A program made the position numbers and the translations under genes. 64,000 nucleotides of DNA from Actinomycetales bacterium (GTDB taxonomy: Bacteria > Actinomycetota > Actinomycetes > S36-B12), in contig WGLX01000006.1 in the NCBI GenBank assembly GCA_016125355.1, positions 109,047 through 173,046 on the forward strand. The letters run 5' to 3'. Below, in pieces: positions 24,020 through 53,738 of this stretch (within the stretch, counting starts at the first letter, position 1; the number at the start of each line of letters is the position of its first letter). A model generated the notes under the pieces. It saw only the letters and a program-made list of their open reading frames with translations, searched no databases and was not told where the DNA came from.

Positions 24020-25327
<1,308 letters not shown>

Positions 25328-25567
25328 TCGCGTTCCTCTCGTGACCGGCCTGGCCTCTCGCCACACCGAGCCCGGCCCCTGACAGGGACGGACTACGCCG
25401 ACCGTACATCGGCTACCGGGCAGATGCAGCCTCACGGCGCGCCGGATCCACCACGGCGTGTCCAGTGACCGGTCAGCCACATGGTCAGGGATGCCCGGAC
25501 CAGCCGACCTGCCCGTGCGTCTGGCCGCGGGCCCGAATCTCGACCGCCCCACCCCTAGACTCCGGCC

Positions 25568-25843
25568 GTGGACGACAACCGACGGATTGCGCGCACGCCC
25601 GGCGTGCTGGAGGCCGAGGTCGACGGCGACCGAGTCCTCATGCATCCAGACGACTACACCTACTACGGCCTGACCGAGACCGGGGCCGCCGTGTGGAGCC
25701 TGATCGACGGCACGCGCTCCGTGGCCGACGTGGTCGCCGCACTGGCCGAGGAGTACGACGCGACGCCCGCGGTCATCCGAACGGACGTCGAGAGCTTCCT
25801 CAGCGGCATGGAGGCGGCCAAGCTGGTCACCTACGGGACCTGA
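25568..25843 (+). CDS. PqqD-family RiPP recognition element (lasso B1-type peptide chaperone)
   Basis: 91 aa with the typical PqqD pattern: [75 protein letters not shown]. It ends 4 nt before the ABC transporter start. Confidence 0.8.
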
Positions 25844-25847
25844 CCGC

Positions 25848-27632
25848 GTGGATCCGTCCGGGTCAGCGAACCAGACCGTGCCCTCGACGAGCACGGCAAC
25901 CCGCGATGCCCGAGAGCTCCTTGGCTTCGCATGGCGTTCGGAGCCCCGACGGCTGGCGTCTCAGTCCGTCCTCCTCGTGGCCACCGGCCTCACCGGAGGA
26001 ATCAGCATGCTCATGCTGGTGCCGGTCGTGAACTCCGTCGCCGGATCGTCCGGGGGAATGACGATCGACATCCCGATCCTGTCCAGCCTGGATCTGTCGG
26101 GGATCCCCCTCCCCGTCCTCCTCCTCATCGTGGTCGCACTGGTCGCCCTGCAGTCCGCACTGTCCTATGCATCGTCGGTGAGCGCCGTCCGGCTGCAGCA
26201 GCTCGTGGTCGACCGGCTCCGGTCGCGCGCCTTCGTGGCGATCCTGGCCGCCCGCTGGGAGTTCGTCCTGGACTCCCGCCGCAGCGACATCGCCGAGATC
26301 GCGACCACCGGCGCTAATCGATGCGGACAGGCCATGAGCGGACTGCTGCGAGCGGCCGTCGCCGCCGTCCTGTCGATCGCCACGGCCGTGGTGGCCCTCA
26401 TCGTGGCGCCCCTCCTCGCCGGGCTGACCATCGTGGCAGTGCTGGCCTTCTCGATCGGACTCATGCGGAGCCTGCGGCCCGCACACGAGATGGGGCAGGC
26501 GTACGGCCTCCGCAATCGAGTCCTGCAGTCCGTCATGCTGAACTCGCTGGACTCCCTCCGGCTGGTCCGGGCGCACGGGGCGGCCGACGTCTGGACGGAT
26601 CAACTGACGGTCGCCTTCGGGGACACCCGCGCCATCCAGCTGGCGAACGTGCGACGCACATCCCGCGTCGCGGCGGTCGCCGCGATCGGTCTGGCGGCGA
26701 GCGCTGCCCTCCTCGTCTTCGTCGCCGTCCAGCTGGACGTGCCGGCCGCGACGATCGTCGTGGTCCTCGTGCTCGCGGCCAGGCTCTCGGCGTCAGTACG
26801 CGGCGTACTGAGCAGCCTGCAGCAGGCGGCGAATGCGCTGCCCGCAGTCGCCGACGTGCGCGAACTGACCGAGCGTGCCGTGGCGGCCGCGGAGAACGGT
26901 GGCGGCCTGGCCGCCCTCCCCCCGCCCGATCCGTCACGCCCGACCGTCGCGCTGCGGAGAGTGACGTACCGCTACCCGGACAGCGATGAGGGCGTCCTCG
27001 ATCTCACTTTCGACATCCCGCGCGGTCGCATCACTGCCCTCGTGGGCCCCTCGGGCGCTGGCAAGTCGACCACCGCCGACATCGTCCTCGGACTCCTGCA
27101 CCCGCGGGAGGGCACCATCGAGGTCGATGGCACGCCGCTCACCCCAGAGCTGCTCGAGTCGTGGCGTCGGCGCGTTGCCTACGTTCCGCAGGACACGCTC
27201 CTGCTCCCGGGCACCCTGCGCTGGAACCTCGTCTGGTCCAGTGCTCGCGAGTCGGTGTCCGACGAGGAGTGCTGGGCGGCCCTCGATGCCGCCGCCGCAG
27301 GCTTCGTGCGCGCCCTTCCCCAAGGACTCGACACCGACCTCGGCGACCGGGGCGTACGGCTCAGCGGGGGCCAGCGGCAACGCCTGGCGATCGCCCGGGC
27401 GCTCGTCCGACGGCCCGAGGTGCTCGTGCTCGACGAGGCGACCAGCGCCCTCGACGACGCCACCGAGGCAGCCGTCCTGTCCGTGCTCTCCTCCCTGACA
27501 CCAGCGCTCACCGTGCTCGTGATCGCCCACCGCAGCACGACGATCGACGTGGCCGACACGGTCGTGACCCTCGAGAGCGGACGGGTGACGGGGATCGCCG
27601 CACGCACGGGTGCCCGCGGAGGCACTCCGTGA
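25848..27632 (+). CDS. ABC transporter, fused permease/ATPase (RiPP exporter or immunity type)
   Basis: 594 aa with an N-terminal 6-TM-like domain, Walker [10 protein letters not shown], the signature [15 protein letters not shown] and Walker [13 protein letters not shown]. Confidence 0.9.
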
Positions 27633-28420
27633 TCGCCCCCGCGGATCCGGGGCTCGCCACCCTCGACCGCTCCGGCGAGCCATGGCTGGGTCACGCACAC
27701 GGTCTGGGGACGGTCCGGGTGTATGCCGATGGCCGGTACGACGTGGAACCGGCCGAAGGCGCCGACGCACGCGCTGCAGAGACACTCGAGCACGGCTGGG
27801 CCGAGCTGCTCGGGCACATCCGTCTCGGCCGCCGGATCGTCGGCGGGACGGTCATGCTGGCACCGGACGCAGCGGATTCCCTGCTCGTGTCCGGCGGGAT
27901 GACGGAGCAGTCACAGGCATGCGTCCTGCTCGCCGAGCGCGGATGGCGCCGGGTGTCGGACGGCTTCACGCCGATCGACACCACCACTCCCCTGCGCGCC
28001 TACCGTCGGGGCGGACCGTGGCTGGTCCCACGGCGGCTGGGCCTGGACTCCGATCTCCTCGACGGCCGCCGGATCCGACCGGGTGCCACCGCACAGGAGG
28101 TCCCGACCCCACCGGTGCCGGAGTCGGTGCCGCTGCGGGCCCGCGTCCTCGTCTCCGAGCACGAGGCGACGACGGGCGAGCCGGTGCCCGTGCTTGCCGA
28201 GGTGTCCGGCCGCCGCCGTATGGGCGTCCAGTTCCAGGCATTCGCCGACCGGTTCGTGGGGGGCGCTGCGGATCCGGCACGCGTCATGGCCGACGACCTG
28301 GCCATCAGCAGTCTCCCCTTGTCGACCCTGCAATGGCCGGCGCTCTACCTCGCGCCGCGAGACGAGCGACTCGCCGCGGTCGACGCCCTGGTGGACTGGT
28401 GGAGGGGCCTCAACCCATGA
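27629..28420 (+). CDS. HPr-kinase-like protein with a degenerate P-loop (possible pseudokinase or scaffold)
   Basis: GTG at 27629 (GTGA overlap with the ABC stop), 263 aa. It aligns by eye to the other HprK-like proteins here (LLVSGGMTEQSQACVLLAERGWRRVSDGFTPID versus [32 protein letters not shown]), but GxGKST is replaced. Confidence 0.55.
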   Translation: MIAPADPGLATLDRSGEPWLGHAHGLGTVRVYADGRYDVEPAEGADARAAETLEHGWAELLGHIRLGRRIVGGTVMLAPDAADSLLVSGGMTEQSQACVLLAERGWRRVSDGFTPIDTTTPLRAYRRGGPWLVPRRLGLDSDLLDGRRIRPGATAQEVPTPPVPESVPLRARVLVSEHEATTGEPVPVLAEVSGRRRMGVQFQAFADRFVGGAADPARVMADDLAISSLPLSTLQWPALYLAPRDERLAAVDALVDWWRGLNP

Positions 28421-30198
28421 ACGATCCCACCGGCCCGATCGTCTGGCTCGCCTCGTACCCGAAGTCCGGCAATACCTGGTTCCGTGCGATCCTGTCGGCC
28501 GTCAAGCGCGGTACCGAGCTGTTCACCCTCGACGTACTCGCCTCGGGCGGCCAGCCGTTCGGTCTGGCCACCAGCGTCGACGTACTGGGGCTCGATCCCC
28601 GGTGGCTGACCCGCAGCGAGGCCGAGCGGTTGCGGTACACGTTGGTGTCGGGGGCCACCGGCGACGAGCCGCGATTCCGCAAGACCCACGAGCGCTACCG
28701 CACCACGCCGATCGAGTGGCCCGAGGCCGAAGGCGACCCGCCGCCACCATTTCCGGTCGAGGCGACGCGGGCGGCCGTGACGATCGTTCGGGATCCGCGA
28801 GCGGTCGCGGTGTCGCTCGCGCACCACTTCGGCAAGTCGCTCGAGGACTCCGTGGACCGGATGGCCCGTGACGACACCCAGCGCGCCGACCCCGCACGGC
28901 TCATCGGTGAGCAGCCCTGGGGGTCATGGTCCGGTCACGCCAGGGCGTGGCACCCGGCCCATCTGCCCTTCCCCGCCTACCGGATCCGCTACGAGGACAT
29001 GCTCGAGCGGCCGATCGAGACGCTCGTTCCGGTTCTGACCGGCGTGGGGATCGAGGTCGACGAGGCGACCCTCGTCGCGGCGCTGGAACGGGTCCGCATC
29101 GATCGTCTTCAGCAGGACGAGGCCGAGCAGGGCTTCCGTGAGACCCATGCCCGAGCACAGCGCTTCTTCCGATCAGGCTCGGCGGACGCGTGGCGCACGG
29201 AGTTGCCGGCCCACCTGATCCGAGCGATCGAGGCCGACCACCAGGACGTCATGGCGGAGTTGGACTACCCGCTCACCAGCGACGCGCCGACCCGCAGGGC
29301 GACGCTGCGCGCCCGCACATCGGCGCGGCGTCATCGCGTCATTCCGTGGAACCGCCTGCCCGACCACCTCGCCTTGGAGGTGAACGAGGGCGCTGTGCCC
29401 GACACCCTCGACGGCGCCCGCAGCGTCCGGCCCTGGCTCGACGTGGCACCGGGCCGGGCCCTCGTCAGGCTGACCGGCGGGACGCGCGTTCTCGTTGCCG
29501 ACGGCTGCCGAGCGACCGTCCACATCGACGCGGACCAGCGAACCAGCGGCGACTGGGCATGGCCGGTGCAGGGCTGGACGGTCGCTCTGGCGATGCTGCA
29601 GCGCGGTCATCTCGTGCTGCACGCGGCAGCTCTCGAACGCGACGGGCGGGCGGTGTGCGTGGCCGGCGCGACCCGAGCCGGGAAGTCGACGACCGCGGTC
29701 GGACTACTCGATCGCGGCTTCCGGCTGCTCGTGGACGACGTGGCCGTCATGGACCCCGAGGGGGATGGGTCGACCGTCCTCCCGTACCTCAGGGGCGTGC
29801 ATCTGACCCGCTCGGCAGCGGAGCGATTGGGCCTCGACTACGACAACCTGCCCGCCTTGTCCGCTGGCCGCGGCAAGGCGGTCTTCCTCGGCGATGACCC
29901 GGGCGGGATCCCGGTGCCGTTGGGAACGGTCGTCGTCCTTCGGCGCTCGGCGGCGATCGGGGCGGTCACCTCGCGTTGGCTGACCGGGACCGAGAAGCTC
30001 GCCGCCCTCCGGCAGCAGACAGACCGAGACGGTGCTGCGGCCGCGATCCTCGGGCAGGCACCGTACTTCGAGCGCCTGGCGAGGTTGGCCGCGTCGACGC
30101 CCGTCCTCGAACTGACCCGTCCGCCGCGAACGTGGTCACTGCAGGAGGTCGTGGAGGGCGTCATGGCGGCCGAGTCCCAGGTCCTTTCCTCTTCCTGA
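28417..30198 (+). CDS. sulfotransferase fused to an HPr-kinase-like domain
   Basis: ATG at 28417 (ATGA overlap), 593 aa. The N-terminal half has the PAPS 5'-PSB motif SYPKSGNTWFRAIL and the 3'-PB-like TIVRDPRAVAVSLAHH. The C-terminal half has LHAAALERDGRAVCVAGATRAGKSTTAVGLLDRGFRLLVDDVAVMD. There is no in-frame stop between the halves, but an internal start cannot be excluded. Confidence 0.8.
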   Translation: MNDPTGPIVWLASYPKSGNTWFRAILSAVKRGTELFTLDVLASGGQPFGLATSVDVLGLDPRWLTRSEAERLRYTLVSGATGDEPRFRKTHERYRTTPIEWPEAEGDPPPPFPVEATRAAVTIVRDPRAVAVSLAHHFGKSLEDSVDRMARDDTQRADPARLIGEQPWGSWSGHARAWHPAHLPFPAYRIRYEDMLERPIETLVPVLTGVGIEVDEATLVAALERVRIDRLQQDEAEQGFRETHARAQRFFRSGSADAWRTELPAHLIRAIEADHQDVMAELDYPLTSDAPTRRATLRARTSARRHRVIPWNRLPDHLALEVNEGAVPDTLDGARSVRPWLDVAPGRALVRLTGGTRVLVADGCRATVHIDADQRTSGDWAWPVQGWTVALAMLQRGHLVLHAAALERDGRAVCVAGATRAGKSTTAVGLLDRGFRLLVDDVAVMDPEGDGSTVLPYLRGVHLTRSAAERLGLDYDNLPALSAGRGKAVFLGDDPGGIPVPLGTVVVLRRSAAIGAVTSRWLTGTEKLAALRQQTDRDGAAAAILGQAPYFERLARLAASTPVLELTRPPRTWSLQEVVEGVMAAESQVLSSS

Positions 30199-30249
30199 CG
30201 CCATTCGCGGGGCCTTGAAGGCCGAATGGGGACCTGCTTCACTTTGCGG

Positions 30250-30378
30250 ATGAATCGATCATTTCGCCCATGGACGCCGCCGCGGATCGAGATGCTGAGG
30301 AGCGCGGCCTCGGCCGAGAGCGGCAACTCCTCCAGCTCGACGGAGAACACGACGTCCAACCCGTCGGCACCCCGGTAG
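30250..30378 (+). CDS. lasso-type RiPP precursor peptide A-a (42 aa)
   Basis: Not in the ORF track (<60 aa). MNRSFRPWTPPRIEMLRSAASAES|GNSSSSTENTTSNPSAPR. It shares W-x-x-P-x-(I/L/V/M)...A-E-S-G with four other small ORFs. The predicted core is Gly1...Glu8. Confidence 0.75.
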   Translation: MNRSFRPWTPPRIEMLRSAASAESGNSSSSTENTTSNPSAPR

Positions 30379-30448
30379 TCCTTACCGCAGGCCCGCGCAC
30401 CGGCAGAGAACCGTTGCGCGGCATGCGAGGACGTGCTTGACTCCAGGG

Positions 30449-30577
30449 ATGAATACGACAAATCGCCCGTGGTCAGCTCCGCAGATGGAGGTCCTGAGCC
30501 ACGTCCTGTCGGCGGAGAGCGGCAACACCTCATTGATCAGCGAGTCGTCCGTTTCCGGCCCTTCGTCACCGAACTAG
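30449..30577 (+). CDS. lasso-type RiPP precursor peptide A-b (42 aa)
   Basis: Not in the ORF track. MNTTNRPWSAPQMEVLSHVLSAES|GNTSLISESSVSGPSSPN. It has the same length and register as A-a, and conserved codons (ATGAAT...CGCCC(A/G)TGG, GAGAGCGGCAAC). Confidence 0.75.
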   Translation: MNTTNRPWSAPQMEVLSHVLSAESGNTSLISESSVSGPSSPN

Positions 30578-30630
30578 GTCCGAGCTCCGGGGGCTTGTCC
30601 CTTCTGCCCCCCCTGTGCTTCGCTCAGCCC

Positions 30631-30768
30631 ATGACAAACTCATTGCGGATCTGGTCCACCCCTCAGATCCTCGTCCTGCGCTCGACCGCCTCGGCCGAGT
30701 CCGGCACGCACACCACCATCACCGAGGCGACCGCAACCACGTACAGCTCCCCGTCCGGCGGCCGCTAG
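30631..30768 (+). CDS. lasso-type RiPP precursor peptide A-c (45 aa)
   Basis: C-terminal part of track ORF 30433..30768, starting at the ATG at 30631. MTNSLRIWSTPQILVLRSTASAES|GTHTTITEATATTYSSPSGGR. Core Gly1...Glu8. Confidence 0.75.
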   Translation: MTNSLRIWSTPQILVLRSTASAESGTHTTITEATATTYSSPSGGR

Positions 30769-30774
30769 GCCGAT

Positions 30775-30795
30775 ACCGGGTGTCCCGGGCGGTTT
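30775..30795 (+). terminator. weak hairpin plus T-run after the third tandem precursor gene
   Basis: CCGGG-tgt-CCCGG followed by GCGGTTTT, in the 43-nt gap between the convergent A-c and A-PCP-TE genes. The stem is short, so support is weak. Confidence 0.3.
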
Positions 30796-30811
30796 TCCGC
30801 GACCTGTCCGA

Positions 30812-33358
30812 TCAGCCCGTGACGTCGTCCATCGCGTCGAGGGCCTCGCGAATCGCGGTCGCCGTGTGCAGCCCTGCGGAGCCCGCGATCATCCCGTTGT
30901 GGGTCGCCTCGACGACCACCTGCGTCAGACGGACGCCGGGAATCGCGCTCCAGCCGAGGTCCGAGCGGTCCTGACGACCGCCACCAGCGCCCACCGCCCT
31001 CACGAGAACCACATCCCCCTCATAAGGACCGTCCTCGTGGTTCCTGCTGGCCACCTTGGCGAGGGCTTCGAAAGCCGCATGCTGACGTTCTCCGCGACGG
31101 GCCACGACCCCTGCGGTGAGGGCAAGCCATCGGCGACGAGCCCGACGCATCGGCAGCCGGGCCGCCCAGAACGCCTTGCGGGTGAGCGACGATGCCTTCC
31201 CCTGCGCGGCGCGCACCGCCTCCGCCTGCCGGAGCGCAGGACGTAGATCCGATCGCAGCCGTCGGGCCCGGTTCACCTGCTCCGTGACGGCCAGCGTGTC
31301 CAGCAGCACCACGAGGGGCACCGTCACCCCACGGGTGGTGAGCACGCGCGCGGTCTGCATGGCCACCGTGCCCCCGATGGAGTGGCCGATCAGCACGACC
31401 GGCCCGGTGCCCGCCACCTCGACGATGTCCGACGCGGCCGTCGTCGCCATGGCCTCGATGGTGCGGTCAGGGCGCTCGCGTCGGTCGAAGCCGCGTGGCA
31501 CAGCGACCCAGGCGGTACGGCCGCCGATCGTCCGTGCCAGCGTGGCCATCCCGGAGGTGTGGCCACCGCCACCGCCCGGGAAGAGCACCATCGGCACCGC
31601 ATCGCTCGGACCGGTCGCCGCGCGCACGAGGCGCTGCCGGTCCGGGGCGGCCGACACCCAGGCCTCGGCGAGGAGGGCGGGCGTTGGGTGGCGAAGGAGC
31701 AACCCCTCGGACACCGGACGTCCCCATACCGCCTCCAGTCGGGCGCAGACCTCCGACAGCGCGAGCGAGTCCGCGCCCAGGGCCAGCAGGTCGTCGTCGC
31801 GGCCGATGGCCGGATCACCGAGCACGGACCCGAACACCTCGGCAGCCTGCTGCTCGAAGGGGGATCGCGGTGGTGAGAACGCCGGCCTTCCGGTCGCCGA
31901 AGCCATGGCGGTGAGCGCCGCTCGGTCCACCTTGCCCCGGTCCGTGGAGGGCAGCGCGTCCAGCACCTCAACGCGGGCGGGAACATGCGTTCGGGGCAGG
32001 CGATCCGCGAGTGCCGCGCGCACCTGCCACCCGCGGAGGTCCTGGCCCACGACGAACGCCACAGGACGGGGGCGACCTGCCTGGTCGACGGCGATCACCA
32101 CGGCCGCCTCGTCCACGCCAGGCACGCGGCGCACGACGGCCTCGACCTGAACCGGGTCCACGAGCGCTCCCGAGACCTTGACGACATCGTCGGAGCGTCC
32201 CCGCAGGATCAGGGCGCCTGAGACGTCCCACGTGGCCCGGTCGCCGGTCCGGTACGACCGCCCTGTCGGGAGGTCGAGAAACCTCTCGGCGGTTCGCTCG
32301 GGGTCGTCGAGGTAGCCCAAGGCCAGCCATTCGCTCGACACGACAACCTCGCCGACGTCCTCCGGCCCGACGTCCCCACCATCCGGCCCGACCACCCGCA
32401 CCGTGAGCCACGGCACGACCTCGGTCAGCGGAATGGGATCGGTCGGGACGGGCTCCCCCGGGGGGATGCGAACGCCGGCGATCCAGTTGGTCTCGGAGGT
32501 GCTGTACCGGTGGAGCAGGGTTGCCTCGGGGAACAGCGCCCGTGCGCGATCGATCTGGGCAGCGGTCAGCCGGTCGCCGCCGAGGCTGACCAGGCGGACC
32601 CCCGGCAGGGGCGGCATGTCAGCGGACGCCAGCGCAGTGAGGGCTGCCGGCGCCAGGTGCGCGACGGTGACGCCCTCATCGGCGAGGCGATCGAGCACCG
32701 TGTGCGGACCCTCGGCGCTCAGGTCGGCCGTGATCAGGCGTGCGCCGTGCACCAGTGCGGTCCACGTGGGCGTGCCCGCCGCCACGGCGGAGAACGGGCT
32801 GGACACGAGCACCACGTCGTCTTCCGTGATCCCGACGGAACGGCCGTACGACTCGGCGTTGTGCACGATGCTCCGATGGGCGTGCACAACCGCCTTCGGG
32901 CGGCCCGCGGTCCCCGATGTCATCGAGACGGACGCAGGCAGCCCAGCCGCGGGCCAGCTCGGCGAAGTGATGGTCCGCGGGGGCGCTTCGACAGGAATCA
33001 CCTGCGGCCCCAGATCCAGAGCGGCTCGGCGGTGCAGGATGTCGGCAACCACCGCGCCCACGGAGTGCCGCGCCAGGACCTCCGCGTGGAACGCCGGCGG
33101 AGCATGGGGATCGAGCACGAGGTAGGCACGTCCCGACCAGGCGACACCGAGCATGGCCGCAACCATGTCGAGCCCGTCAGTGCACAGCACCGCCACGGGC
33201 CGGTCGGGCAGGGGGGCATCGCCCACCGCGGCGGCGAGCGCGGCGGATCGGACCGCGAGCTCGCGATAGGACAGAGCGCCGTGACGGGACAGGACGGCGA
33301 CCTTGTCGCAGTCCTCGCGGCCGGCGAGGACAGACTCGGGGAGGCTGCGGTCAGCCAT
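30812..33358 (-). CDS. stand-alone NRPS-like protein: adenylation - PCP - thioesterase
   Basis: 848 aa. A-domain cores: SMTSGTAGRPKAV, YSTSET, YRTGD, GRSDDVVKVSG and PSTDRGKVDR. PCP: LGADSLALSE. TE: GHSIGG. Its start overlaps the cyclase stop by 8 nt. Confidence 0.88.
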   Translation of the reverse strand: MADRSLPESVLAGREDCDKVAVLSRHGALSYRELAVRSAALAAAVGDAPLPDRPVAVLCTDGLDMVAAMLGVAWSGRAYLVLDPHAPPAFHAEVLARHSVGAVVADILHRRAALDLGPQVIPVEAPPRTITSPSWPAAGLPASVSMTSGTAGRPKAVVHAHRSIVHNAESYGRSVGITEDDVVLVSSPFSAVAAGTPTWTALVHGARLITADLSAEGPHTVLDRLADEGVTVAHLAPAALTALASADMPPLPGVRLVSLGGDRLTAAQIDRARALFPEATLLHRYSTSETNWIAGVRIPPGEPVPTDPIPLTEVVPWLTVRVVGPDGGDVGPEDVGEVVVSSEWLALGYLDDPERTAERFLDLPTGRSYRTGDRATWDVSGALILRGRSDDVVKVSGALVDPVQVEAVVRRVPGVDEAAVVIAVDQAGRPRPVAFVVGQDLRGWQVRAALADRLPRTHVPARVEVLDALPSTDRGKVDRAALTAMASATGRPAFSPPRSPFEQQAAEVFGSVLGDPAIGRDDDLLALGADSLALSEVCARLEAVWGRPVSEGLLLRHPTPALLAEAWVSAAPDRQRLVRAATGPSDAVPMVLFPGGGGGHTSGMATLARTIGGRTAWVAVPRGFDRRERPDRTIEAMATTAASDIVEVAGTGPVVLIGHSIGGTVAMQTARVLTTRGVTVPLVVLLDTLAVTEQVNRARRLRSDLRPALRQAEAVRAAQGKASSLTRKAFWAARLPMRRARRRWLALTAGVVARRGERQHAAFEALAKVASRNHEDGPYEGDVVLVRAVGAGGGRQDRSDLGWSAIPGVRLTQVVVEATHNGMIAGSAGLHTATAIREALDAMDDVTG

Positions 33359-34940
33359 CGCCCGTGCCGTCCCGGTCTGCTCGGGTCCGGCGGACGAGCT
33401 CCAGCAGCACGGGGTCGTCCTTCGACGTCATGCGGATGTGGTCGGGCACGAGGCCGTCCAGGGCCTTGCGGAACACCAGGCGAGTGTGCCCGCCCAGGCG
33501 GAACACCTCCGGCGGCATGGCCAGCGCCCACTCGACGAGCCGCACGTCCAGTAGGGGGTAGCGGTACTCGACCCCGAAGAGGAGCCCGGCCTCCCGCCAC
33601 GACTCGATCCGGCGCGCCAGGTGGTCGTTGGCGATGAGCGCCTCCTGCACGCCGCGGGGCGAACCCGCCGACCGCAGCCGCACCCGGTGCGCGCGCTGCG
33701 CAGCCACCAGCTCGGGGTGCTCGTGGCCGGTGCTCGCCATGAACTTCTCGCTCGTGCGGGGCTCTTGACGCCTCCCGCCGCGAAGTCGATCCCAGGGATC
33801 CCCGCCCGGCAGCGCCTCCAGCGCCAAGTCCGAGGCCGCCTGTGCACGGGACCGCCCGCGCGACCGGAGTTCCCGATAAGCGGCGCGAACCGGACCGACC
33901 TTGATGGAGCGCACCAGGGCCCGATTCGTCATGCGTCCGTTGAAGCTGGCGAACTCATCGCCGCCCCACCCGCTGAAGATCTGGCGGACGCCGAACTCCG
34001 CATACCGCGGGAGGATCGTGGACTCCCGATTGAGGGTGGAACGAGGCAGCCGGACCGGATCGATCCGCGCCAGCCACTCGGCTTCTCCCAGTTCGTGATG
34101 CCCGAAGATGACCGGCAGGTCGTGCTCAGCGGCCAGCTCCTGGACCAGGGCCCGTTCGTCATAGGCGATGTCGGCACTGTCGAGCGAAGGCAGCGATACC
34201 GGATCGGGGGACCAGGACACGACGGCCGCCAGCGTGCGCCCGCGGGAAGCCAGCTCGCGTTGGACGAGCAGTGCCACGGCCGTGGAATCGAGGCCGCCGG
34301 ACAGGTGTGCGGCGATCGCGTTGACGTCGTCGTGAGGTTCGCCGCGGAGCGCCGCCTCGACGTGGTCTGCCACGACGCCGAGCAGCAGCGCGCGCAGGCA
34401 GTCGGCGGCCTGGTCCACGGAGATGCCGCGCGCCTTCGGCACCTTCTCGGGGAGCCACCACCGGGTGACCGCTGCCTCGCGTCCTTGAATGCGCACCGCA
34501 CAGCCGGGAGGCACGCGATGGACGCCTGCCGCAGGCGTGCGGGTCGGCACCGTCGCGAGCGCGCGGGCCTTGGTCGCCCATGCGAATTCGGCGTCCGCTG
34601 CGATGCCTCCCGGCCGCGCAGCGAGAACCTCGGCGAGGGAGTCGGCGACCACCACGCCGTCGTCCGTTCGGGACCAGTACACGGGCATCAGGCCGAGTTG
34701 GTCCCGGACGATGAGGAGCCCGTCGCCGTCATCGACGGCGTATCCCCACGCACCGCGGAGGCGGGGGCCGGCGGCCCCTCCCCACCGCGTGGCGGCGGCT
34801 GACACGACCTCGCCATCCGAGGCAGAGGCGGATAGCCCCAACCCCGTCTCGAGCTCGGCCCGGTTCGTCAGCCAGCCAGCACTCCACACCACCTCGGCAG
34901 CGGGAGGGTCGGCCAGCACGTGGACATTGTGCCGCGTCAT
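33351..34940 (-). CDS. asparagine-synthetase-like lasso peptide cyclase (C protein)
   Basis: 529 aa. An N-terminal Ntn-like region is followed by the PP-loop AHLSGGLDSTAVA and the AsnB-type C-terminus (GVEYRYPLLDVRLVEWAL). It is divergent from precursor A-d, 54 nt away. Confidence 0.85.
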   Translation of the reverse strand: MTRHNVHVLADPPAAEVVWSAGWLTNRAELETGLGLSASASDGEVVSAAATRWGGAAGPRLRGAWGYAVDDGDGLLIVRDQLGLMPVYWSRTDDGVVVADSLAEVLAARPGGIAADAEFAWATKARALATVPTRTPAAGVHRVPPGCAVRIQGREAAVTRWWLPEKVPKARGISVDQAADCLRALLLGVVADHVEAALRGEPHDDVNAIAAHLSGGLDSTAVALLVQRELASRGRTLAAVVSWSPDPVSLPSLDSADIAYDERALVQELAAEHDLPVIFGHHELGEAEWLARIDPVRLPRSTLNRESTILPRYAEFGVRQIFSGWGGDEFASFNGRMTNRALVRSIKVGPVRAAYRELRSRGRSRAQAASDLALEALPGGDPWDRLRGGRRQEPRTSEKFMASTGHEHPELVAAQRAHRVRLRSAGSPRGVQEALIANDHLARRIESWREAGLLFGVEYRYPLLDVRLVEWALAMPPEVFRLGGHTRLVFRKALDGLVPDHIRMTSKDDPVLLELVRRTRADRDGTGDG

Positions 34941-34959
34941 GGTCCCCGTGAAATGGCTC

Positions 34960-34973
34960 TATCCGAGCGGATA
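34960..34973. promoter_or_regulatory. perfect 14-bp palindrome in the cyclase / precursor A-d divergent promoter (putative operator)
   Basis: TATCCGAGCGGATA lies centrally in the 54-nt intergenic region 34941-34994. The half-site TATCC/GGATA recurs in the repeat block upstream of the GAF-LuxR gene (23061-23098). Confidence 0.4.
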
Positions 34974-34994
34974 CGGAGTCGCTAGCATCCGGCC

Positions 34995-35132
34995 ATGACT
35001 TCGAAGATGCCATGGGGGACCCCCGAGCTGACCCTCCTGCGTTCCGCGGTGGACGCAGAGTCGGGCACGAGGTACTCCGACAGTTCCGAGGGCCAGAGCC
35101 AGTTGACCTTCGTGCCGTCCGGCCAGGCCTAA
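34995..35132 (+). CDS. lasso-type RiPP precursor peptide A-d (45 aa)
   Basis: Not in the ORF track. MTSKMPWGTPELTLLRSAVDAES|GTRYSDSSEGQSQLTFVPSGQA. Core Gly1...Glu9, with Asp6 too close to close a ring. Confidence 0.78.
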   Translation: MTSKMPWGTPELTLLRSAVDAESGTRYSDSSEGQSQLTFVPSGQA

Positions 35133-35147
35133 CGCCGGTCCTCGACC

Positions 35148-35172
35148 GACAGCCGAGGGCCGCTCGGCCGTC
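35148..35172 (+). other. stem-loop between precursor A-d and the downstream kinase-like gene (possible attenuator or RNA-stability element)
   Basis: GACAGCCGAG-ggccg-CTCGGCCGTC, a 10-bp stem with one mismatch. It lies 16 nt after the A-d stop and 35 nt before the ATG at 35207. Confidence 0.35.
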
Positions 35173-35206
35173 CTCATGCAGGGGCGACTGCCGACCCGCT
35201 GATCTC

Positions 35207-36049
35207 ATGACGACGCGTGTGCACTCTCTGCCTGCCCACCTCGGCATCGCTGTCCGCCGCGGCGTCGTACCGACGTCGCTCTCGGGTGGCCGACGCCTCC
35301 CGGGCGGCGTCACTGTCGCCGACGGCACCACCCTGGTGCGGTTTCCCCAAGGTGCCCTCCTCGTCGAGGACGGCACCACAGCCACGGTCGACTGGCCCGG
35401 CGGCAGCGACGTCCCGTCCTGGGTCATCGAGTCTTGGGCCGTGAGCCTGGCCATGGTGCAGCGCGGGAACCTCTGTCTGCACGCGTCCGTGGTTGCCGTG
35501 GGCGACCGGGTCGTCGCCATCGCCGGTGACTCGGGGGCCGGCAAGTCGACCACGGTGCTGGCCCTCGAGGCGCGGGGCCACCGCCTCCTGACCGACGACG
35601 TGGCCATCGTCGACCTGCGACCCGATGGACCGTGGGTGCTGCCGTACCAGCGCAGCGTCCATCTGCTCCCGGACGCGGCGGCCGCGCTCGACGTTGACTT
35701 CGCGGATCTGGCTCCCCTCGCCGACTTCCCCGAAAAGTCCGCCTACCATCCCGCGGCACCGCCGACCGATCCTCTGCCGATCCACGCCGTGGTGCTGCTC
35801 GTGCCGAATGAGGGCATTGAGATGCCCCGCGTGAGGGAACTGCGGGGCGTCGAGAAGGTGCAGTCGACGATGGTCCACGCGGGCCGACCGGTCACGTCTC
35901 CCGCGATCATGGGCGAGGAACGCTACTTCGCGGCCCTGACCGAGCTGGCCGCGCGGACCCCGGTCTACCTCCTCGAGCGGCCGGAAGGCGCGTGGACCCT
36001 CGACGAGGTCTGCACGGCCATCGAGTCGGTGGCCGCCGAGAAACGCTGA
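35207..36049 (+). CDS. HPr-kinase-like protein (candidate RiPP Ser/Thr kinase)
   Basis: ORF 35012..36049 trimmed to the ATG at 35207, giving 280 aa. [46 protein letters not shown] has an intact P-loop. Confidence 0.8.
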   Translation: MTTRVHSLPAHLGIAVRRGVVPTSLSGGRRLPGGVTVADGTTLVRFPQGALLVEDGTTATVDWPGGSDVPSWVIESWAVSLAMVQRGNLCLHASVVAVGDRVVAIAGDSGAGKSTTVLALEARGHRLLTDDVAIVDLRPDGPWVLPYQRSVHLLPDAAAALDVDFADLAPLADFPEKSAYHPAAPPTDPLPIHAVVLLVPNEGIEMPRVRELRGVEKVQSTMVHAGRPVTSPAIMGEERYFAALTELAARTPVYLLERPEGAWTLDEVCTAIESVAAEKR

Positions 36050-36092
36050 CGAGACGATGTACTTCGGCGTGGATGACCACTACCGTCCTCCC

Positions 36093-36233
36093 ATGCGCAC
36101 ACAGAAGCCCTGGGCCGCGCCCGAGGTAGCACTCCTGCGCGCAGCAGGGGACGCCCAAGGCGGTACTTACTCGTGGTCGACGGAGAACTCCGAGACGGCC
36201 ACCGGGTGCGTCGTTCCCTCAGGCAACGTCTGA
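36093..36233 (+). CDS. lasso-type RiPP precursor peptide A-e (46 aa; possible longer form from the ATG at 36057)
   Basis: Not in the ORF track. MRTQKPWAAPEVALLRAAGDAQG|GTYSWSTENSETATGCVVPSGNV. Core Gly1...Glu8. It ends 10 nt from the convergent A-PCP-TE stop. Confidence 0.75.
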   Translation: MRTQKPWAAPEVALLRAAGDAQGGTYSWSTENSETATGCVVPSGNV

Positions 36234-36243
36234 GCCCGATCCC

Positions 36244-38862
36244 CTAGGCCGACACTCGATTCAAGGCCTCCCGAACGAGACGTGCGGTCTCCGCCACGTA
36301 CGGTTCGTCCACCAACGTCTCGTGCGTGCTCGGGACCGTGCGGATCTGCACGGATCCCCGAACGAAATCTCCCCAGCGCAGGTCCGGCGGAGCGGATCCC
36401 AGATTGCGCGGATCCGACACGGCGGCGCAGATGAGCAGCAGGTCGCCCTCGAACGGCTTCTCCCGGTAGCGGGCCAGCGCGACCGCGACCACGGACTGGA
36501 ATGCCGCATCCCGGCGCTCGCTTCCGACGGGCAGCCAGCGGGCTGACGCCGCTCGGGCCCGGATGGCGACCCGCTCCCCCACGACGCGTCCCGACCAGAA
36601 GGCTCGCCGGGCCCAGCCCGTCCGCTGACCCCGTCGGGCACGCTCCGCCTCGCCGACGCGCACGTGCCGCGGGATGGCTGCACGTAGGGATCGCGACAGG
36701 CGCAGCTGCGGCGATCGCGGTGGCGAGTCCAGGACGACGACGAGCGGGACCTCGACGCCCGCGGCCCGCAGCTGGCGTGCGGCCTCCACCGCGATGTTCC
36801 CTCCCGAGGACATGCCGACCAAGGCGACCGGGCCGGGGGTGCCCTCGGCCAGCCAGTCCGACACGGCGGATCCCGCGATGCCCGTCACCGACCGATCGAT
36901 CCGCCCCCGGTACTGGTACCCCCGGGGGACCACGAGGAAGCACGGCCGACCCGCGACATGTCGAGCCAGCCGGGCGATGCCGGCCAGGCGCGTTCCGCCG
37001 CCGCCACCGAACAGGAGCAGCGGAACCCCTGTCCCGTCCACCGACGACAGCCGGATCAGGCGCGAGTCCCGCGAGGACCCCGGGCGGGCAGGCGCCCTCA
37101 GCGACTCGGCCAGACGGGCCGCCGTCGAGTGCCGAAGGAGCGTCGCCGCCGGCACGTCCCGCCCCAGCCTGGCCGACAGCGCCGATGCCGCCTCCTCGAG
37201 TCCCAGCGAGTCGGCGCCGAGGGCGAGGATGTCGTCGTCCCGGCCAAGGTCGTCCCGCCCGACCACCATGCCGAACTCCGCGAGGATCACAGCCTCGAGG
37301 TCGTCCCGGGCCGGAGCGAACTCCGGTCTCCCGGCGGCCACGGCACGGGTCGCGAGGGCATCGGCGTCCACCTTCCCCATGGGAGTGAGCGGCAGCTCGT
37401 CGACGATCTCGACCACGGCAGGCACCATCGCCGCAGGCAGGGCCGCGGCCACGGCACCGCGCAGGTCGACGGCCCGCACGCCGTCGGCGACGGCGAAAGC
37501 CGCGAGCCGCCGCTCTCCTGACTCGGTGTCGAAGGGCACGACCGCAGCGGCCTCGACACCCTCGACTGTTTCGAGCACGGCCTCGATGCGCACCGGGTCG
37601 ACGAGCACGTCGTGGATCTTCACGGTGGCATCGGCACGACCCGCGAACTCGAGCATCCCGTCCGGGCCACGTCGCATGCGATCGAGGGTCCGGTACCGCT
37701 GCTCGGCTCCGGCAGCCGAGAAGCGCGTGTCGGTGAGCTCCGCATCGTCGAGGTAGCCCAGGGCGAGATGGTCGCCGCGCACCTCCGCCTCGCCCTCACC
37801 CTCGCCGACGGCGACGGCACCATCGGGACCGACCAGGTCGAGGGCCAGCCACGGCACCGGCCAGCCGATGGGCACCGTACCTGTGCCGGGAAGCACAGCC
37901 ACATCGATCTCGAGCCCAGCGGTCCAGTTCGTCTCCGAGGTGTTGTAGCGGTGCAGGAGCCGCGCCTCGGGGAACATCCGATGCGCGGTGCGCACCTGGT
38001 CGACCGTGAGGCGATCGCCGCCCGTCAGGACCCAGCGGACGGTGTCGCAGGTGCGTGAGCCAGCACGCGACCCCAGCGCGGTGAGCAGGCCGGCCGTCAG
38101 GAACACCACCGAGCCGCGACGCTCGTCGAGCGTCGCCACCAGGTCGTCGACACCGGACGACAGGTCGTGGACGAGAGCGGTCGCTCCGCTCAGCAGCGCC
38201 GTGAACACCGGGGTGGCTCCGGCGACGAACGGGAACGGCAGGGTGGCCGCCAGGACGTCGCCGTCGCCCACTTCGAGTGCGCGAGAGACGCGCAGGGCGT
38301 TGTGCACGACGGACCGGTGGGCATGGACCACGGCCTTCGGCCGTCCGGACGTGCCCGAGGTGGACGAGACCGCCACCGGCGCGCCCGGATCGACGGCACG
38401 GTCAAGGGCCGCGCGGCCAGCCGGGGCGTCGAAGGACACGACGGGCGCTCCGCCGGACAGGCGCTCCGCCAGCACCGACTGGCCGGTGTCTCCGATCACC
38501 GCCGAGAGCCGGTGCCGGGAGCTGACCCGCTCGAGGTGCGCCACGGGTGCCTTCGCGTCGAGCACGAGGTACGCCCCGCCGGCGCGCGCCACAGCCAGCA
38601 TGGCCACGACCGCGCGGACATCGTGCCCGGCAAGTACTCCGACCGGGCGCCAGGGGTCCAGTCCCTCCGGCAGTGCCGCAGCGAGGGCTTCGGCTCGGTC
38701 ATCCAGTTCCGCATAGGTGAGGGACTGCTGCCGATCGACCACCGCCGTGCGCCCCGGCCAGCTCCGGACGGCCTCACGGAACGCCACGTCGAGTGTCCGC
38801 TCAGCCCTGTCGGGGTCGTCCAGATCGGCGGCCGGCGGCAGCAGCCACGGTCCGCTGTTCAC
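36244..38862 (-). CDS. second stand-alone NRPS-like protein: adenylation - PCP - thioesterase
   Basis: 872 aa and a paralogue of 30812..33358. Motifs: SSTSGTSGRPKAV, YNTSET, GRADATVKIHD, PLTPMGKVD, the PCP LGADSLGLEE and the TE GMSSGG. Confidence 0.88.
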   Translation of the reverse strand: MNSGPWLLPPAADLDDPDRAERTLDVAFREAVRSWPGRTAVVDRQQSLTYAELDDRAEALAAALPEGLDPWRPVGVLAGHDVRAVVAMLAVARAGGAYLVLDAKAPVAHLERVSSRHRLSAVIGDTGQSVLAERLSGGAPVVSFDAPAGRAALDRAVDPGAPVAVSSTSGTSGRPKAVVHAHRSVVHNALRVSRALEVGDGDVLAATLPFPFVAGATPVFTALLSGATALVHDLSSGVDDLVATLDERRGSVVFLTAGLLTALGSRAGSRTCDTVRWVLTGGDRLTVDQVRTAHRMFPEARLLHRYNTSETNWTAGLEIDVAVLPGTGTVPIGWPVPWLALDLVGPDGAVAVGEGEGEAEVRGDHLALGYLDDAELTDTRFSAAGAEQRYRTLDRMRRGPDGMLEFAGRADATVKIHDVLVDPVRIEAVLETVEGVEAAAVVPFDTESGERRLAAFAVADGVRAVDLRGAVAAALPAAMVPAVVEIVDELPLTPMGKVDADALATRAVAAGRPEFAPARDDLEAVILAEFGMVVGRDDLGRDDDILALGADSLGLEEAASALSARLGRDVPAATLLRHSTAARLAESLRAPARPGSSRDSRLIRLSSVDGTGVPLLLFGGGGGTRLAGIARLARHVAGRPCFLVVPRGYQYRGRIDRSVTGIAGSAVSDWLAEGTPGPVALVGMSSGGNIAVEAARQLRAAGVEVPLVVVLDSPPRSPQLRLSRSLRAAIPRHVRVGEAERARRGQRTGWARRAFWSGRVVGERVAIRARAASARWLPVGSERRDAAFQSVVAVALARYREKPFEGDLLLICAAVSDPRNLGSAPPDLRWGDFVRGSVQIRTVPSTHETLVDEPYVAETARLVREALNRVSA

Positions 38863-39815
38863 GCGGGTTCCCGGGATTCACGACTCACCCCGTGCGTGGA
38901 TCCGGCGGCCAGCACGCGCTCGGATCCACCCTCCGCAGCGCCCCAGGAACGCATGCGAAGCGCGTGGTCCGCATCGTCCGCTGAGCGCCACTCCCAGCTG
39001 ATGTGCCAGAGGCGCGCCTTTGCGGTCGCGCGCGCCCCGAGCGCCTCGATGGCCTCGGCGAGCCTCCGGCGCTCGTCGCCGTCGAGGTACATCAGCAGGG
39101 CGCTGTGCCAGATCACCGTGTCCGTGCCGGGTTGCAGCGTGAGGGACGCGGCGTAGTCCGCGGCCGAGCGCCGCACCACCGCCGCCGGCATGTCCGCCGC
39201 CCACGCGAGCGCACGATCCAGGGCCTCGCGTCGCCGCGGGTTGTCGATCCACACATAGCTGCGGAGCAGGGCCACGTCGTCGGGGTCCCTCGGGTCCAGC
39301 GGGTCGAGGTCGCACCCACCGCGCTCGACGATCTCCGGCAGGCGTGCGGCGTCGTGCGCATCAGTCCACTGCTCCGGATGCAGGTTGAGACCCGCGGACG
39401 CCCCGAGCTCGAACAGGCGGACCGGCCCGGGGATCTCGGCCAGGGCCCGACGCAGCTGCCGACCCCGTCCGATCTCGTTCGTCTGCGGCACCCGGGCGAG
39501 ATAGTGCGCGAGCACCTCGGGATGCTGCCGGAGGGCGTCCGCCACGGCGGACCTCTGCGCGGGGCCGGGCTCCCGGGGCAGGTCGGCATCGCCGTCGAGA
39601 ATGAGCCGGTGCAGTGCCGCGAGGATGCGCAGCCCCACCCGGTCCCCCGAGCGCACCCGGGGCGGAAGGAGCGTAGACGTGGGGCCGGTCAGGCCGTCGA
39701 CCACGGCACCGAGCAGGGCGGCGGAGACCGGCGCGTCCATCGCGAGGCAGAACTCCTGCTGCCAGCGAAGCGCATCCACCAGGTCGACGATCGCATCGTC
39801 AGGGGGTCGGTGCAC
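38859..39815 (-). CDS. DUF2332-like protein
   Basis: 318 aa. YLARVPQTNEIGRGRQLRRALAEIPGPVRLFELGASAGLNLHPEQW matches my recollection of the DUF2332 signature (QTNE..R ... E.GaSAGLNL). It overlaps the downstream A-PCP-TE start by 4 nt. Confidence 0.6.
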   Translation of the reverse strand: MHRPPDDAIVDLVDALRWQQEFCLAMDAPVSAALLGAVVDGLTGPTSTLLPPRVRSGDRVGLRILAALHRLILDGDADLPREPGPAQRSAVADALRQHPEVLAHYLARVPQTNEIGRGRQLRRALAEIPGPVRLFELGASAGLNLHPEQWTDAHDAARLPEIVERGGCDLDPLDPRDPDDVALLRSYVWIDNPRRREALDRALAWAADMPAAVVRRSAADYAASLTLQPGTDTVIWHSALLMYLDGDERRRLAEAIEALGARATAKARLWHISWEWRSADDADHALRMRSWGAAEGGSERVLAAGSTHGVSRESREPA

Positions 39816-39877: not shown

Positions 39878-40993
39878 GTGACTGCCGGGGTGCCGCCGCT
39901 GCGAGACATCGTGCCGGGCTGGCGTCCCCCCGCCCCCGGGCGCGCGATCGCCGTGGTCGAGGGCGAGGGCATCGGGGCCGAGGTCGTGGGCGCGGCCCTC
40001 ACGGTGCTGTCGGCCGCCTGCGATGCCTGGCAGACCGAGGTCCTCGTCGACCGGTCGGGCCCGATCGGCAGCGTCGGTCCGGCCGGTTTCGGCCTCGACC
40101 AGGCCGCGGTCGACTTCTACGATTCCGCCTTCGAGCGTGGGCTGCCGGTGCTCACCGGGCCGGCCGGTGGGCGCTTCGTCTATGAGCTGCGGGCCCGCTA
40201 CGAACTGTTCGTCAAACTCGTCCCGACCCGGCCGGACGCCGGCCTCGCCGACGCCTCGGTCATCCGCCCCGAGCGGCTGCGCGAGGTGGATGTGCTCATC
40301 GTGCGGGACAACATCGGCGGGCTCTACCAGGGTGCCTTCAGCGTGTCCGCGGATGGGCGGTCGGCGTTCCAGGAGGCCCGCTACGACCTCGACACCGTCG
40401 AGGTGCTCATGCAGGTCGCGGTCGCCGCGGCTCGCGCACGCGGCGGCCGTCTCGCCGTGGTCACCAAGCCCGGTGGCATCCCGACCATCAGCGCGCTGTG
40501 GCGTCGAGTGGCCGAGGAGCACGCCGGCGATGACGTGGTGATCGACGTCATCGAGGTGGACAACGCGTGCTTCCAGCTGGTCGCCGACCCCCATCGCTTC
40601 GACGTTGTCGCTGCTCCGAACATGCTCGGCGACGTCGTGGCGGACACCGCCGCCCTCGTGCTCGGCTCGCGCGGGCTGTCCTACTCGGCGAACTTCGGTC
40701 TCCCAGGACGGGCGGTCTACCAGACCGGCCACGGAGCGGCACACGATCTGGCCGGACTCGACCGCGCCAATCCCATTGCCCAGATCAGGTCCCTGGCATG
40801 GCTGATCCGAGAGAGCCTGGAGCTGCCGCACATGGCGGAGTCCATCGAGATGGCGGTGGACTCGGTCCTGGCCGATGGTTTCCGCACCGCCGACATCGCC
40901 AGCCCAGGGTCCACCGTGCTGGGCACCCGGGGGCTCGCGACGCGCATCGCCGAGCGTGTCAAGCAGGCCGCGCTGGACCGCGCTTCACCGTGA
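39878..40993 (+). CDS. isocitrate/isopropylmalate dehydrogenase-family oxidoreductase
   Basis: 371 aa. IAVVEGEGIGAEVV, LIVRDNIGGLY and NMLGDVVADTAA (the NxxGD(I/V)xSD-type motif) are typical of beta-decarboxylating dehydrogenases. Confidence 0.75.
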   Translation: MTAGVPPLRDIVPGWRPPAPGRAIAVVEGEGIGAEVVGAALTVLSAACDAWQTEVLVDRSGPIGSVGPAGFGLDQAAVDFYDSAFERGLPVLTGPAGGRFVYELRARYELFVKLVPTRPDAGLADASVIRPERLREVDVLIVRDNIGGLYQGAFSVSADGRSAFQEARYDLDTVEVLMQVAVAAARARGGRLAVVTKPGGIPTISALWRRVAEEHAGDDVVIDVIEVDNACFQLVADPHRFDVVAAPNMLGDVVADTAALVLGSRGLSYSANFGLPGRAVYQTGHGAAHDLAGLDRANPIAQIRSLAWLIRESLELPHMAESIEMAVDSVLADGFRTADIASPGSTVLGTRGLATRIAERVKQAALDRASP

Positions 40994-43337: not shown

Positions 43338-43448
43338 CGCCTCCGACGTGCGCGCCCAGCCGGCCACGCGTGCCCGGGGCGATGTCGTCACGAGGCCGAG
43401 TGTAGGCGCGGGCCCCACCGCCGCGCGGCTCTCGGCTACCGTCGACGC

Positions 43449-48405: not shown

Positions 48406-48423
48406 GGCAGGAGCGGGTCGGCG

Positions 48424-52095: not shown

Positions 52096-52106
52096 GGCCG
52101 GTCCGG

Positions 52107-53727: not shown

Positions 53728-53738
53728 GGCGTCAGAGC

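Follow-up and report, generated by a model that had tools for sequence, protein, structure and literature searches.

A conserved near-C-terminal Pro-Ser motif in the precursors of an actinobacterial lasso-type cluster with HprK-like kinases and A-PCP-TE proteins

Five precursor genes share a C-terminal motif

We analyzed a 64,000-nucleotide stretch of DNA from an Actinomycetales bacterium (assembly GCA_016125355.1, contig WGLX01000006.1, positions 109,047 to 173,046), here called the window, which contains a full set of lasso peptide pathway parts (B1, B2, a putative cyclase, and exporter) together with five precursor genes on the forward strand (+). Three of these genes form a group, namely, A-a (30250-30378), with the predicted leader MNRSFRPWTPPRIEMLRSAASAES and core GNSSSSTENTTSNPSAPR; A-b (30449-30577), with the core GNTSLISESSVSGPSSPN; and A-c (30631-30768), with the core GTHTTITEATATTYSSPSGGR. 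The other two, B (34995-35132; core GTRYSDSSEGQSQLTFVPSGQA) and C (36093-36233; core GTYSWSTENSETATGCVVPSGNV), lie farther downstream. The tails of A-a, A-b, A-c, B, and C read NPSAPR, GPSSPN, SPSGGR, VPSGQA, and VPSGNV, respectively, and the Pro-Ser dipeptide that they have in common is encoded at 30361-30366, 30560-30565, 30751-30756, 35115-35120, and 36216-36221.

Translation confirmed a preliminary description, made from the sequence alone, that had placed Pro-Ser at positions -5/-4 of every precursor: the dipeptide stands there in 5/5, and all five end in P-S-[G/A/S]-x-x. The accompanying statement that everything around Pro-Ser varies was not quite accurate. Gly follows the Ser in three of the five and in 25 of the 29 precursors of the wider clade described below, where Pro also occupies Ser+2 in 14/29, and the motif is better written P-S-G-(P)-x-COOH. 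When the five tails were shuffled, 0 of 200,000 shuffles gave any dipeptide common to one fixed C-terminal offset; the five are paralogues, which makes this test weak when taken alone.

The codons of the motif differ synonymously among A-a, A-b, A-c, B, and C (Pro, CCG, CCT, CCG, CCG, and CCC; Ser, TCG, TCG, TCC, TCC, and TCA), and we concluded that conservation acts on the protein and not on a DNA repeat. Given these differences, and given that the motif is retained where the cyclases are only 42 to 54% identical, we ruled out an origin by DNA repeat or gene conversion. We also ruled out the motif as a by-product of overlap with the convergent genes for adenylation-peptidyl carrier protein-thioesterase (A-PCP-TE) proteins, from which the precursor genes are separated by gaps of 43 and 10 bases.

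The five leaders follow the pattern M..W-x-x-P-x-[LIMV]-x-x-L...A-[EQ]-[SG], with the Trp 17 residues ahead of Gly1 and a Glu at position 8 or 9 of the core; the same recognition motif, Trp-to-Gly1 spacing, and ring acid pattern are found in 27/29 clade precursors. At leader position -2, the window precursors have Glu or Gln, and those of the clade have E, Q, M, N, L, A, or F, in place of the canonical lasso Thr, and the conserved leader residue near the cleavage site is, clade-wide, an Ala at -3. The cores, counted from Gly1, are rich in hydroxyl residues, as had been described, with Ser and Thr together making up 50, 44, 48, 32, and 35% of A-a, A-b, A-c, B, and C. This richness is specific to the window, as orthologous cores mostly contain 15 to 35%.

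Two side observations concern precursor-like genes. A short conserved DNA stretch (TGCTTCACT, TGCTTGACT, and TGCTTCGCT) lies 5 to 15 bases before the start codons of A-a, A-b, and A-c (window 30226-30640, +), where no Shine-Dalgarno sequence stands out; this stretch may serve in regulation or in translation initiation. Two further small open reading frames (45817-45912 and 45979-46080, +), just upstream of a fourth HprK-like kinase gene, encode a leader-like WQAPEV motif (...WQAPEVTQITDAGGATPDATANIRNGTSQQV and ...WQAPEVTPLTDPDGASQYPHARIRNLESPSPPP) and have neither the Gly1/Glu8 core nor the P-S-G tail. A similar peptide is encoded upstream of the kinase in a related locus (L006, 950-1042, -; loci fetched for comparison carry L numbers), and these open reading frames could encode degenerate precursors, substrates of a second class, or decoys.

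The motif Ser is invariant in a rare cyclase clade

The asparagine synthetase-like cyclase of the window (33351-34940, -) belongs to a rare clade of ~15 proteins with 36 to 94% identity, and the next relatives are at most 35% identical and well separated. It matches PF00733 at an E value of 4e-23, and its top functional NCBIfam match, to the lasso cyclase model NF033535, scores 94.8 bits where the cutoff is 525; the context fits a lasso cyclase, but the clade is divergent. A genome scan with the single cyclase protein found nothing, a scan of 185,579 reference species genomes with the clade profile yielded one close member only, and a metagenome scan added one near relative, L088. The fetched contigs (L001, L002, L005, L006, L007, and others) share an architecture of genes for a PqqD-like protein, an ATP-binding cassette (ABC) exporter, a pseudokinase, a sulfotransferase-kinase, precursors, A-PCP-TE, cyclase, and kinase, and the B2 gene, a nucleotidyltransferase gene, and a dehydrogenase pair are often nearby.

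We tallied the motif in 29 precursors from ~15 related actinobacterial clusters. Orthologous tails included SPSGLPN, NPSGQAS, NPSGQPA, NPSGQV, APSGPR, TPSGAV, VPSGPA, SPSGPA, and VPSGPV, as well as APSGVG, SPSGPT, NPSGVPA, APSGPN (twice), NPSGPV, APSGVD, and one ASGPV, which lacks the Pro. The tally was 29/29 for Ser, 28/29 for Pro, and, as mentioned, 25/29 for the Gly after Ser. Loss of Pro-Ser from orthologous precursors had been named beforehand as an observation that would speak against a dedicated site; we found the Ser lost in none of the 29 and the Pro lost once. The Ser is the sole hydroxyl residue conserved clade-wide and was never swapped for Thr, Ala, or Gly among the 29 sequences.

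The position of the motif is equally constrained. Three residues follow the Ser in 25/29 precursors and four in 4/29, placing it at -4 or -5, and it is C-terminal in none (0/29); the L001 precursor (...PSGQAS) ends in a different Ser. Many residues occur in the last position (V, A, N, R, G, T, S, D, Q, or E), which is highly variable, and the loop between ring and motif is 5 to 12 residues long. Since the loop varies in length and the distance from the Ser to the end is fixed, the motif is anchored to the C terminus and not to the ring.

A word-indexed search with the five precursors returned only a strain variant with a core identical to that of precursor B (P0001). When 1.84 billion proteins were searched exhaustively with a precursor profile, seven short precursor-like matches emerged, one of them the L006 precursor, all ending in P-S-[GA]-x-x, a result that is partly circular because the profile includes the motif. 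We also noted a 139-residue database protein (P0129) with two precursor-like segments, in each of which ...PSGAG or ...PSGPV is directly followed by a Trp; the gene caller may have read TGA stop codons as these Trp residues and so merged two tandem precursors.

The motif aligns with the C-terminal Ser of kinase-associated relatives

Distant relatives of the cyclase come from many phyla, and some of the actinobacterial ones lie in clusters that have a kinase and a sulfotransferase-kinase fusion in common with the window (L010, L035, and L050, and L025 with the stand-alone kinase). The precursors predicted for these distant relatives end in Ser (...GPAS, ...GGAS, ...GGSS, ...AAPS, ...YRPS, ...YFPS, and ...YHPPS), as does that of the nearest outgroup, L088, the cyclase of which is 39% identical (...FGPS). 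Overall, a C-terminal Ser was present in 55/76 predicted precursors of the HprK-positive clusters surveyed. Among 47 C-terminal-Ser precursors, 17 end in PS and 15 in PxS (together 32/47, from ~36 HprK-positive loci without a TE gene).

The preliminary description had noted that an HprK homologue phosphorylates the C-terminal Ser in the paeninodin family, which agrees with published work (PMC8498205, PMC9266682). The C-terminal Ser has been shown to be the acceptor of the HprK-type kinase in paeninodin, ThcoA, SyanA, and pseudomycoidin, on the linear precursor (PMC8498205, PMC9266682, PMC6993621), and reviews describe the residue as conserved in all clusters that have the kinase gene (PMC9266682). 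The motif Ser of the window aligns with the C-terminal (Pro-)Ser of the relatives, which suggests that it is the same acceptor site, moved inward by an extension of 3 to 4 residues. Judged from these alignments, the Pro-Ser of the window is thus best read as a paeninodin-type acceptor site plus a 3- to 4-residue extension.

The extension goes together with a second feature. In a TE domain search of all 171 fetched loci, TE-family genes were found only where the motif is extended, a link that, with all extended-motif clusters forming one clade, reflects one or a few evolutionary events. The TE takes the form of an A-PCP-TE protein in six of the extended-motif loci, the window included, and of a thioesterase that stands alone (PF00975) on the short contigs of L170 and L171. 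None of the ~36 kinase-positive loci with a C-terminal Ser has a TE-family gene. Two loci (L004 and L168) have the motif and no TE gene on incomplete contigs from which other essential genes are missing too, and they are neutral with regard to the link. These co-occurrences suggest that the extension is a clade-specific addition tied to a TE-family enzyme, usually an A-PCP-TE.

Plug-poor tails are enriched in the clade

Two of the window cores had been described as having almost no bulky residues in the tail to serve as a lasso plug, and this was borne out. A-b has none of F, Y, W, R, K, and H past the ring-closing Glu, and A-a has its C-terminal Arg alone. Precursor C is plug-poor as well, with no such residue past the ring-closing Glu, and the remaining two carry Y14 (A-c) and F16 (B). 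Across the clade, 12/29 cores have no F/Y/W/R/K/H past the ring acid, versus 4/47 of the C-terminal-Ser relatives (Fisher P = 0.001), and three of those four relatives have Cys pairs. The C-terminal-Ser relatives usually have an aromatic residue 1 to 4 residues ahead of the final Ser.

Plug-poor tails are thus a statistically supported trait of the clade, consistent with a lock that would be based on a modification. The earlier proposal was that a bulky or charged modification, rather than a side chain, provides the steric lock; the enrichment (12/29 versus 4/47) fits it, and the lock itself we infer. Alternatively, the products of the clade may not be threaded, and with 12/29 tails plug-less, threading is a real question.

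HprK-like kinases and tailoring enzymes

The B1 protein, a PqqD-like leader recognition protein (25568-25843, +; PF05402, E value of 1.9e-20), is followed by the ABC exporter, lasso D (25848-27632, +). Next comes a degenerate HprK-like protein (27629-28420, +) without the Walker GKS, the catalytic His, or the DD pair, the gene for which overlaps the preceding exporter gene and the following sulfotransferase-kinase gene by four bases each. Related clusters, among them ones with C-terminal Ser (L010 and L050), retain this protein, which is probably a pseudokinase or scaffold.

Four other HprK-like domains keep the catalytic His-Lys-Asp-Asp, a motif essential in lasso kinases (PMC9266682). One forms the C-terminal half of a sulfotransferase-kinase fusion (28417-30198, +), in which both the PKSGNTW loop and H...GKS...DD are intact. 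The second is a stand-alone kinase (35207-36049, +) that adjoins the cyclase in every related cluster, and the third is the kinase encoded downstream of the WQAPEV open reading frames (46098-46958, +). The last forms the N-terminal part of a fusion with a family 2 glycosyltransferase (49684-52143, -), which suggests that phosphorylation and glycosylation may be coupled; we are not aware of a description of such a fusion. A further glycosyltransferase (52555-53910, -; Pfam group 1 families plus Family 4) and an NTP_transf_5 (PF14907) nucleotidyltransferase (47227-48423, -) are also encoded in the window, and the transglutaminase-like leader peptidase, lasso B2, lies at 42888-43418 or, in its longer form, 42888-43730 (-; PF13471, E value of 9.5e-14), with an uncertain start codon.

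A-PCP-TE proteins lack the marks of amino acid activation

The window encodes two A-PCP-TE proteins. The gene for the first (30812-33358, -) is convergent with A-a to A-c and overlaps the end of the cyclase gene, and the pocket of its product is without Asp235; the gene for the second (36244-38862, -) is convergent with precursor C. Two subtypes can be distinguished, with type 1 (PFSAVAA...RYSTSE) following the cyclase gene and type 2 (PFPFVA...RYNTSE) adjoining a gene for a DUF2332 protein (38859-39815, -, in the window; likewise in L002 and L005). A-PCP-TE genes always adjoin precursor genes, and their clade is as rare as that of the cyclase; beyond it, matches are to generic nonribosomal peptide synthetase (NRPS) modules.

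We aligned the A domains of nine clade members, assigning positions by motif and not by structural alignment. The domains keep the A3, A7, A8, and A10 motifs, including the A10 Lys. In amino acid-specific A domains, Asp235 binds the free alpha-amino group. That residue is absent here, where A4 reads PFSAVAAG or PFPFVAGA; A5 is HRY(S/N)TSE instead of NxYGPTE, and an invariant Arg occupies pocket position 322. On this motif-based assignment, the missing Asp235, the altered A5, and Arg322 argue against a free alpha-amino acid as the substrate. The Ser of the PCP and the Ser-Asp-His triad of the TE are conserved, and the weak structural database matches of the TE domain are to type II thioesterases and the Pks13 TE.

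Other genes in and around the cluster

An isopropylmalate dehydrogenase-like gene is followed by one for an isochorismatase-aldehyde dehydrogenase fusion (39878-42891, +; first start codon uncertain). This pair is kept in five related clusters at varying positions and occurs in L001, L002, L004, L005, L007, and L169; in L004, it lies directly before the precursors. The two genes look like cluster members that make or modify a small acid or act on the peptide. For the TE domain, as for the dehydrogenases and the fusion with aldehyde dehydrogenase, structure database searches returned generic family matches only.

A gene for a ClpX-type ATPase with a zinc finger adjoins the PqqD gene in three clusters (24020-25960, -, in the window; 18031-19350 in L001; and from 19947 in L002), and in L001, it is inside the cluster, between the PqqD and sulfotransferase genes. 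There is no clpP gene adjacent to it in the window. The lasso peptide lassomycin targets ClpC1. The ClpX-type ATPase could be a self-resistance copy of a target or a dedicated unfoldase. Genes for type IV pilus assembly (7194-13158; two T2SSE-type ATPases, PilM, and a PilO-like gene) lie upstream and appear unrelated to the peptide cluster.

Discussion

In gene content, the window cluster appears to work like, and to descend from, kinase-associated lasso systems, with an NRPS-like enzyme added. With the paeninodin type (PadeK, ThcoK, and SyanK), it shares the lasso machinery, an HprK-like kinase with His-Lys-Asp-Asp, and a conserved near-C-terminal Ser, often after Pro, and sulfotransferase and nucleotidyltransferase genes have been reported in some paeninodin-type clusters (PMC8498205). 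It differs in that the acceptor Ser is the last residue there, whereas 3 to 4 residues always follow in the window clade, and in having four intact kinase domains plus a pseudokinase, the sulfotransferase-kinase fusion, the A-PCP-TE proteins, the dehydrogenases, and a leader without Thr -2. In the literature searched, the coverage of which was incomplete so that an earlier description may exist, a search for lasso clusters with thioesterase, adenylation, or sulfotransferase genes turned up no account of a cluster like this one, and we found no lasso cluster described as having an A-PCP-TE protein.

That the motif Ser is a dedicated site of enzymatic O-modification is, as a prediction from sequence conservation and gene content, well supported. 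The reading that we favor, with a probability of about 0.5, is that this site was inherited from the C-terminal-Ser family, is phosphorylated by an HprK-type kinase, and possibly is built up further. In such a pathway, the PqqD-like protein would bind the leader via W-x-x-P-x-L, the Trp of which stands 17 residues before Gly1, and an HprK-type kinase would phosphorylate the Ser on the linear precursor, the candidates being the stand-alone kinase beside the cyclase and the sulfotransferase-kinase fusion. The nucleotidyltransferase or glycosyltransferases may then extend the phosphate, as in pseudomycoidin, after which the leader would be removed and the Gly1-Glu8/9 lactam ring would close around the tail.

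Pseudomycoidin is made with the kinase PsmK and the nucleotidyltransferase-like enzyme PsmN. Like the window, it combines a kinase with a putative NTP-transferase gene. One Ser receives first phosphate(s) and then hexose(s) (PMC6993621), an example of how the motif Ser could come to carry a bulky group. It differs in being a Firmicute system with a C-terminal Ser, no A-PCP-TE genes, and no dedicated glycosyltransferases.

Several points weigh against phosphorylation of an inherited site. The preliminary description had proposed an O-modification site from the proximity of the Ser to kinase-like proteins, sulfotransferases, and glycosyltransferases; the invariance of the Ser (29/29), its alignment with the known acceptor, and the four intact kinase domains support that proposal, but characterized lasso kinases are reported to need a C-terminal Ser, being described as specific for it (PMC8498205), and 0/29 motif serines are C-terminal. 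A comparison of the clade kinases with the kinases of actinobacterial C-terminal-Ser clusters revealed no clear specificity switch residues, the differences tracking phylogeny. The strictly co-occurring TE-family enzyme is given no defined job, and the fixed distance from the Ser to the C terminus is explained by evolutionary history alone. Since no cluster without a TE-family gene was found to have the extension, apart from the incomplete L004 and L168, acylation, lactone formation, and trimming are live alternatives to phosphorylation or sulfation, and these readings are not all mutually exclusive.

A tentative and broader possibility, which we hold to be distinctly less probable than kinase action on an inherited site, is that the clade is a family of ribosomal/NRPS-like hybrid lasso peptides in which the A-PCP-TE protein closes a macrolactone between the Ser and the C terminus or attaches an unusual acid to the Ser as an ester, the group so formed, and not a bulky side chain, locking the tail in the ring.

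The first of these chemistries, taken alone, is unlikely in our estimation. The A domain would adenylate the C-terminal carboxylate of the precursor, the PCP would be loaded, and release from the TE by the hydroxyl of the motif Ser would leave a small Ser-Gly-x-x(-x) depsipeptide ring that acts as a steric plug at the tail end. Such a ring would account for a distance from Ser to C terminus that is fixed at 3 to 4 residues while the loop varies, for the turn-forming Gly and Pro after the Ser, for an extension found only with TE-family genes, and for the enrichment of plug-poor tails. It also fits A domains that have lost Asp235 and carry HRY(S/N)TSE for NxYGPTE, yet keep their catalytic motifs next to an intact PCP Ser and TE triad, and the macrolactonization of a thioester by Ser or Thr is a textbook job of NRPS TE domains. 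We know, however, of no ANL-family A domain that activates a peptide C terminus; the C-terminal residue is very variable, L170 and L171, on their short contigs, have only a stand-alone TE, and the retained kinases would need another substrate. A second C-terminal macrocycle has a counterpart in the class V lasso peptides gelatinamin A and lariocidin B, which undergo processing at the end of the core once the lasso has formed or at about that time: a terminal Gly is lost, and the new C terminus becomes part of a second macrocycle (PMC13178200). Class V differs in using a clostripain-like transpeptidase and a Lys isopeptide link, with no Ser, kinase, or NRPS-like enzyme involved.

We rate somewhat lower the idea that the A-PCP-TE protein activates a small non-amino acid and that the TE then passes it on to the motif Ser, or to a sugar carried by that Ser, the acid possibly being made by the isopropylmalate dehydrogenase-like and isochorismatase-aldehyde dehydrogenase genes. 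Precedents would be NosI/NosJ/NosK or the TE of Pks13. In nosiheptide biosynthesis (NosI/NosJ/NosK), as in D-alanylation by DltA/DltC, an adenylating enzyme, a carrier, and an alpha/beta-hydrolase-type transferase put a small acid on a side chain of a ribosomal peptide or on a polymer hydroxyl; the components there are not fused, and their targets are a Cys thiol (Nos) or teichoic acid (Dlt), whereas the window has a single A-PCP-TE fusion in a lasso cluster. An acidic, non-amino acid substrate is suggested by the absence of Asp235 together with the invariant Arg322, and the weak TE structural matches include the Pks13 TE, an O-acyltransferase. The location of A-PCP-TE genes always beside precursor genes and the retention of the dehydrogenase pair in five clusters at shifting positions agree with such a role. 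Against it, O-acylation gives no reason for the Ser to have moved 3 to 4 residues inward, any connection of the dehydrogenases with the A domain is guesswork, and the contig that encodes P0005 has an A-PCP-TE gene and no such dehydrogenases within 10 kb.

Ranking lower again is the explanation that the extension is a removable cap, G-x-x(-x), cut off by the TE-family hydrolase or another peptidase to expose ...Pro-Ser-COOH for the kinases. This would reconcile the motif with kinases that look unchanged relative to those of C-terminal-Ser clusters, and a stand-alone TE-type hydrolase, as in L170 and L171, would be enough. The residues past the Gly are variable, as in a follower peptide, and loss of a C-terminal residue during maturation also has the class V precedent (PMC13178200). 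Removal of a cap, however, leaves no role for the A and PCP domains to which the TE is joined in most clusters, peptidase activity is not typical of thioesterase-fold enzymes, and conserved Gly and Pro residues, as seen in the extension, would not be expected of a piece that is discarded.

Finally, a purely structural or recognition role, in which an unmodified Pro-Ser-Gly-Pro turn serves the cyclase, the exporter, or a target, suits the typical turn-forming Pro and Gly flanks but is very improbable, because a C-terminal Ser tracks the kinase (55/76 precursors in HprK-positive clusters; PMC9266682), four intact kinase domains are kept in the cluster, and none of the 29 sequences has Thr, Ala, or Gly in place of the Ser.

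In the kinase-associated lasso peptides known so far, the acceptor Ser is in every case the final residue. The clade described here breaks this rule, with strict conservation, and does so together with an A-PCP-TE protein. The features common to its precursors provide a sequence rule by which new members can be recognized: W-x-x-P-x-L, 17 residues to Gly1, Glu8, and a terminal P-S-G-x-x. If the motif Ser does bear a large modification or is tied to the C terminus, then in this family a posttranslational group would replace the side chain plugs of lasso peptides.

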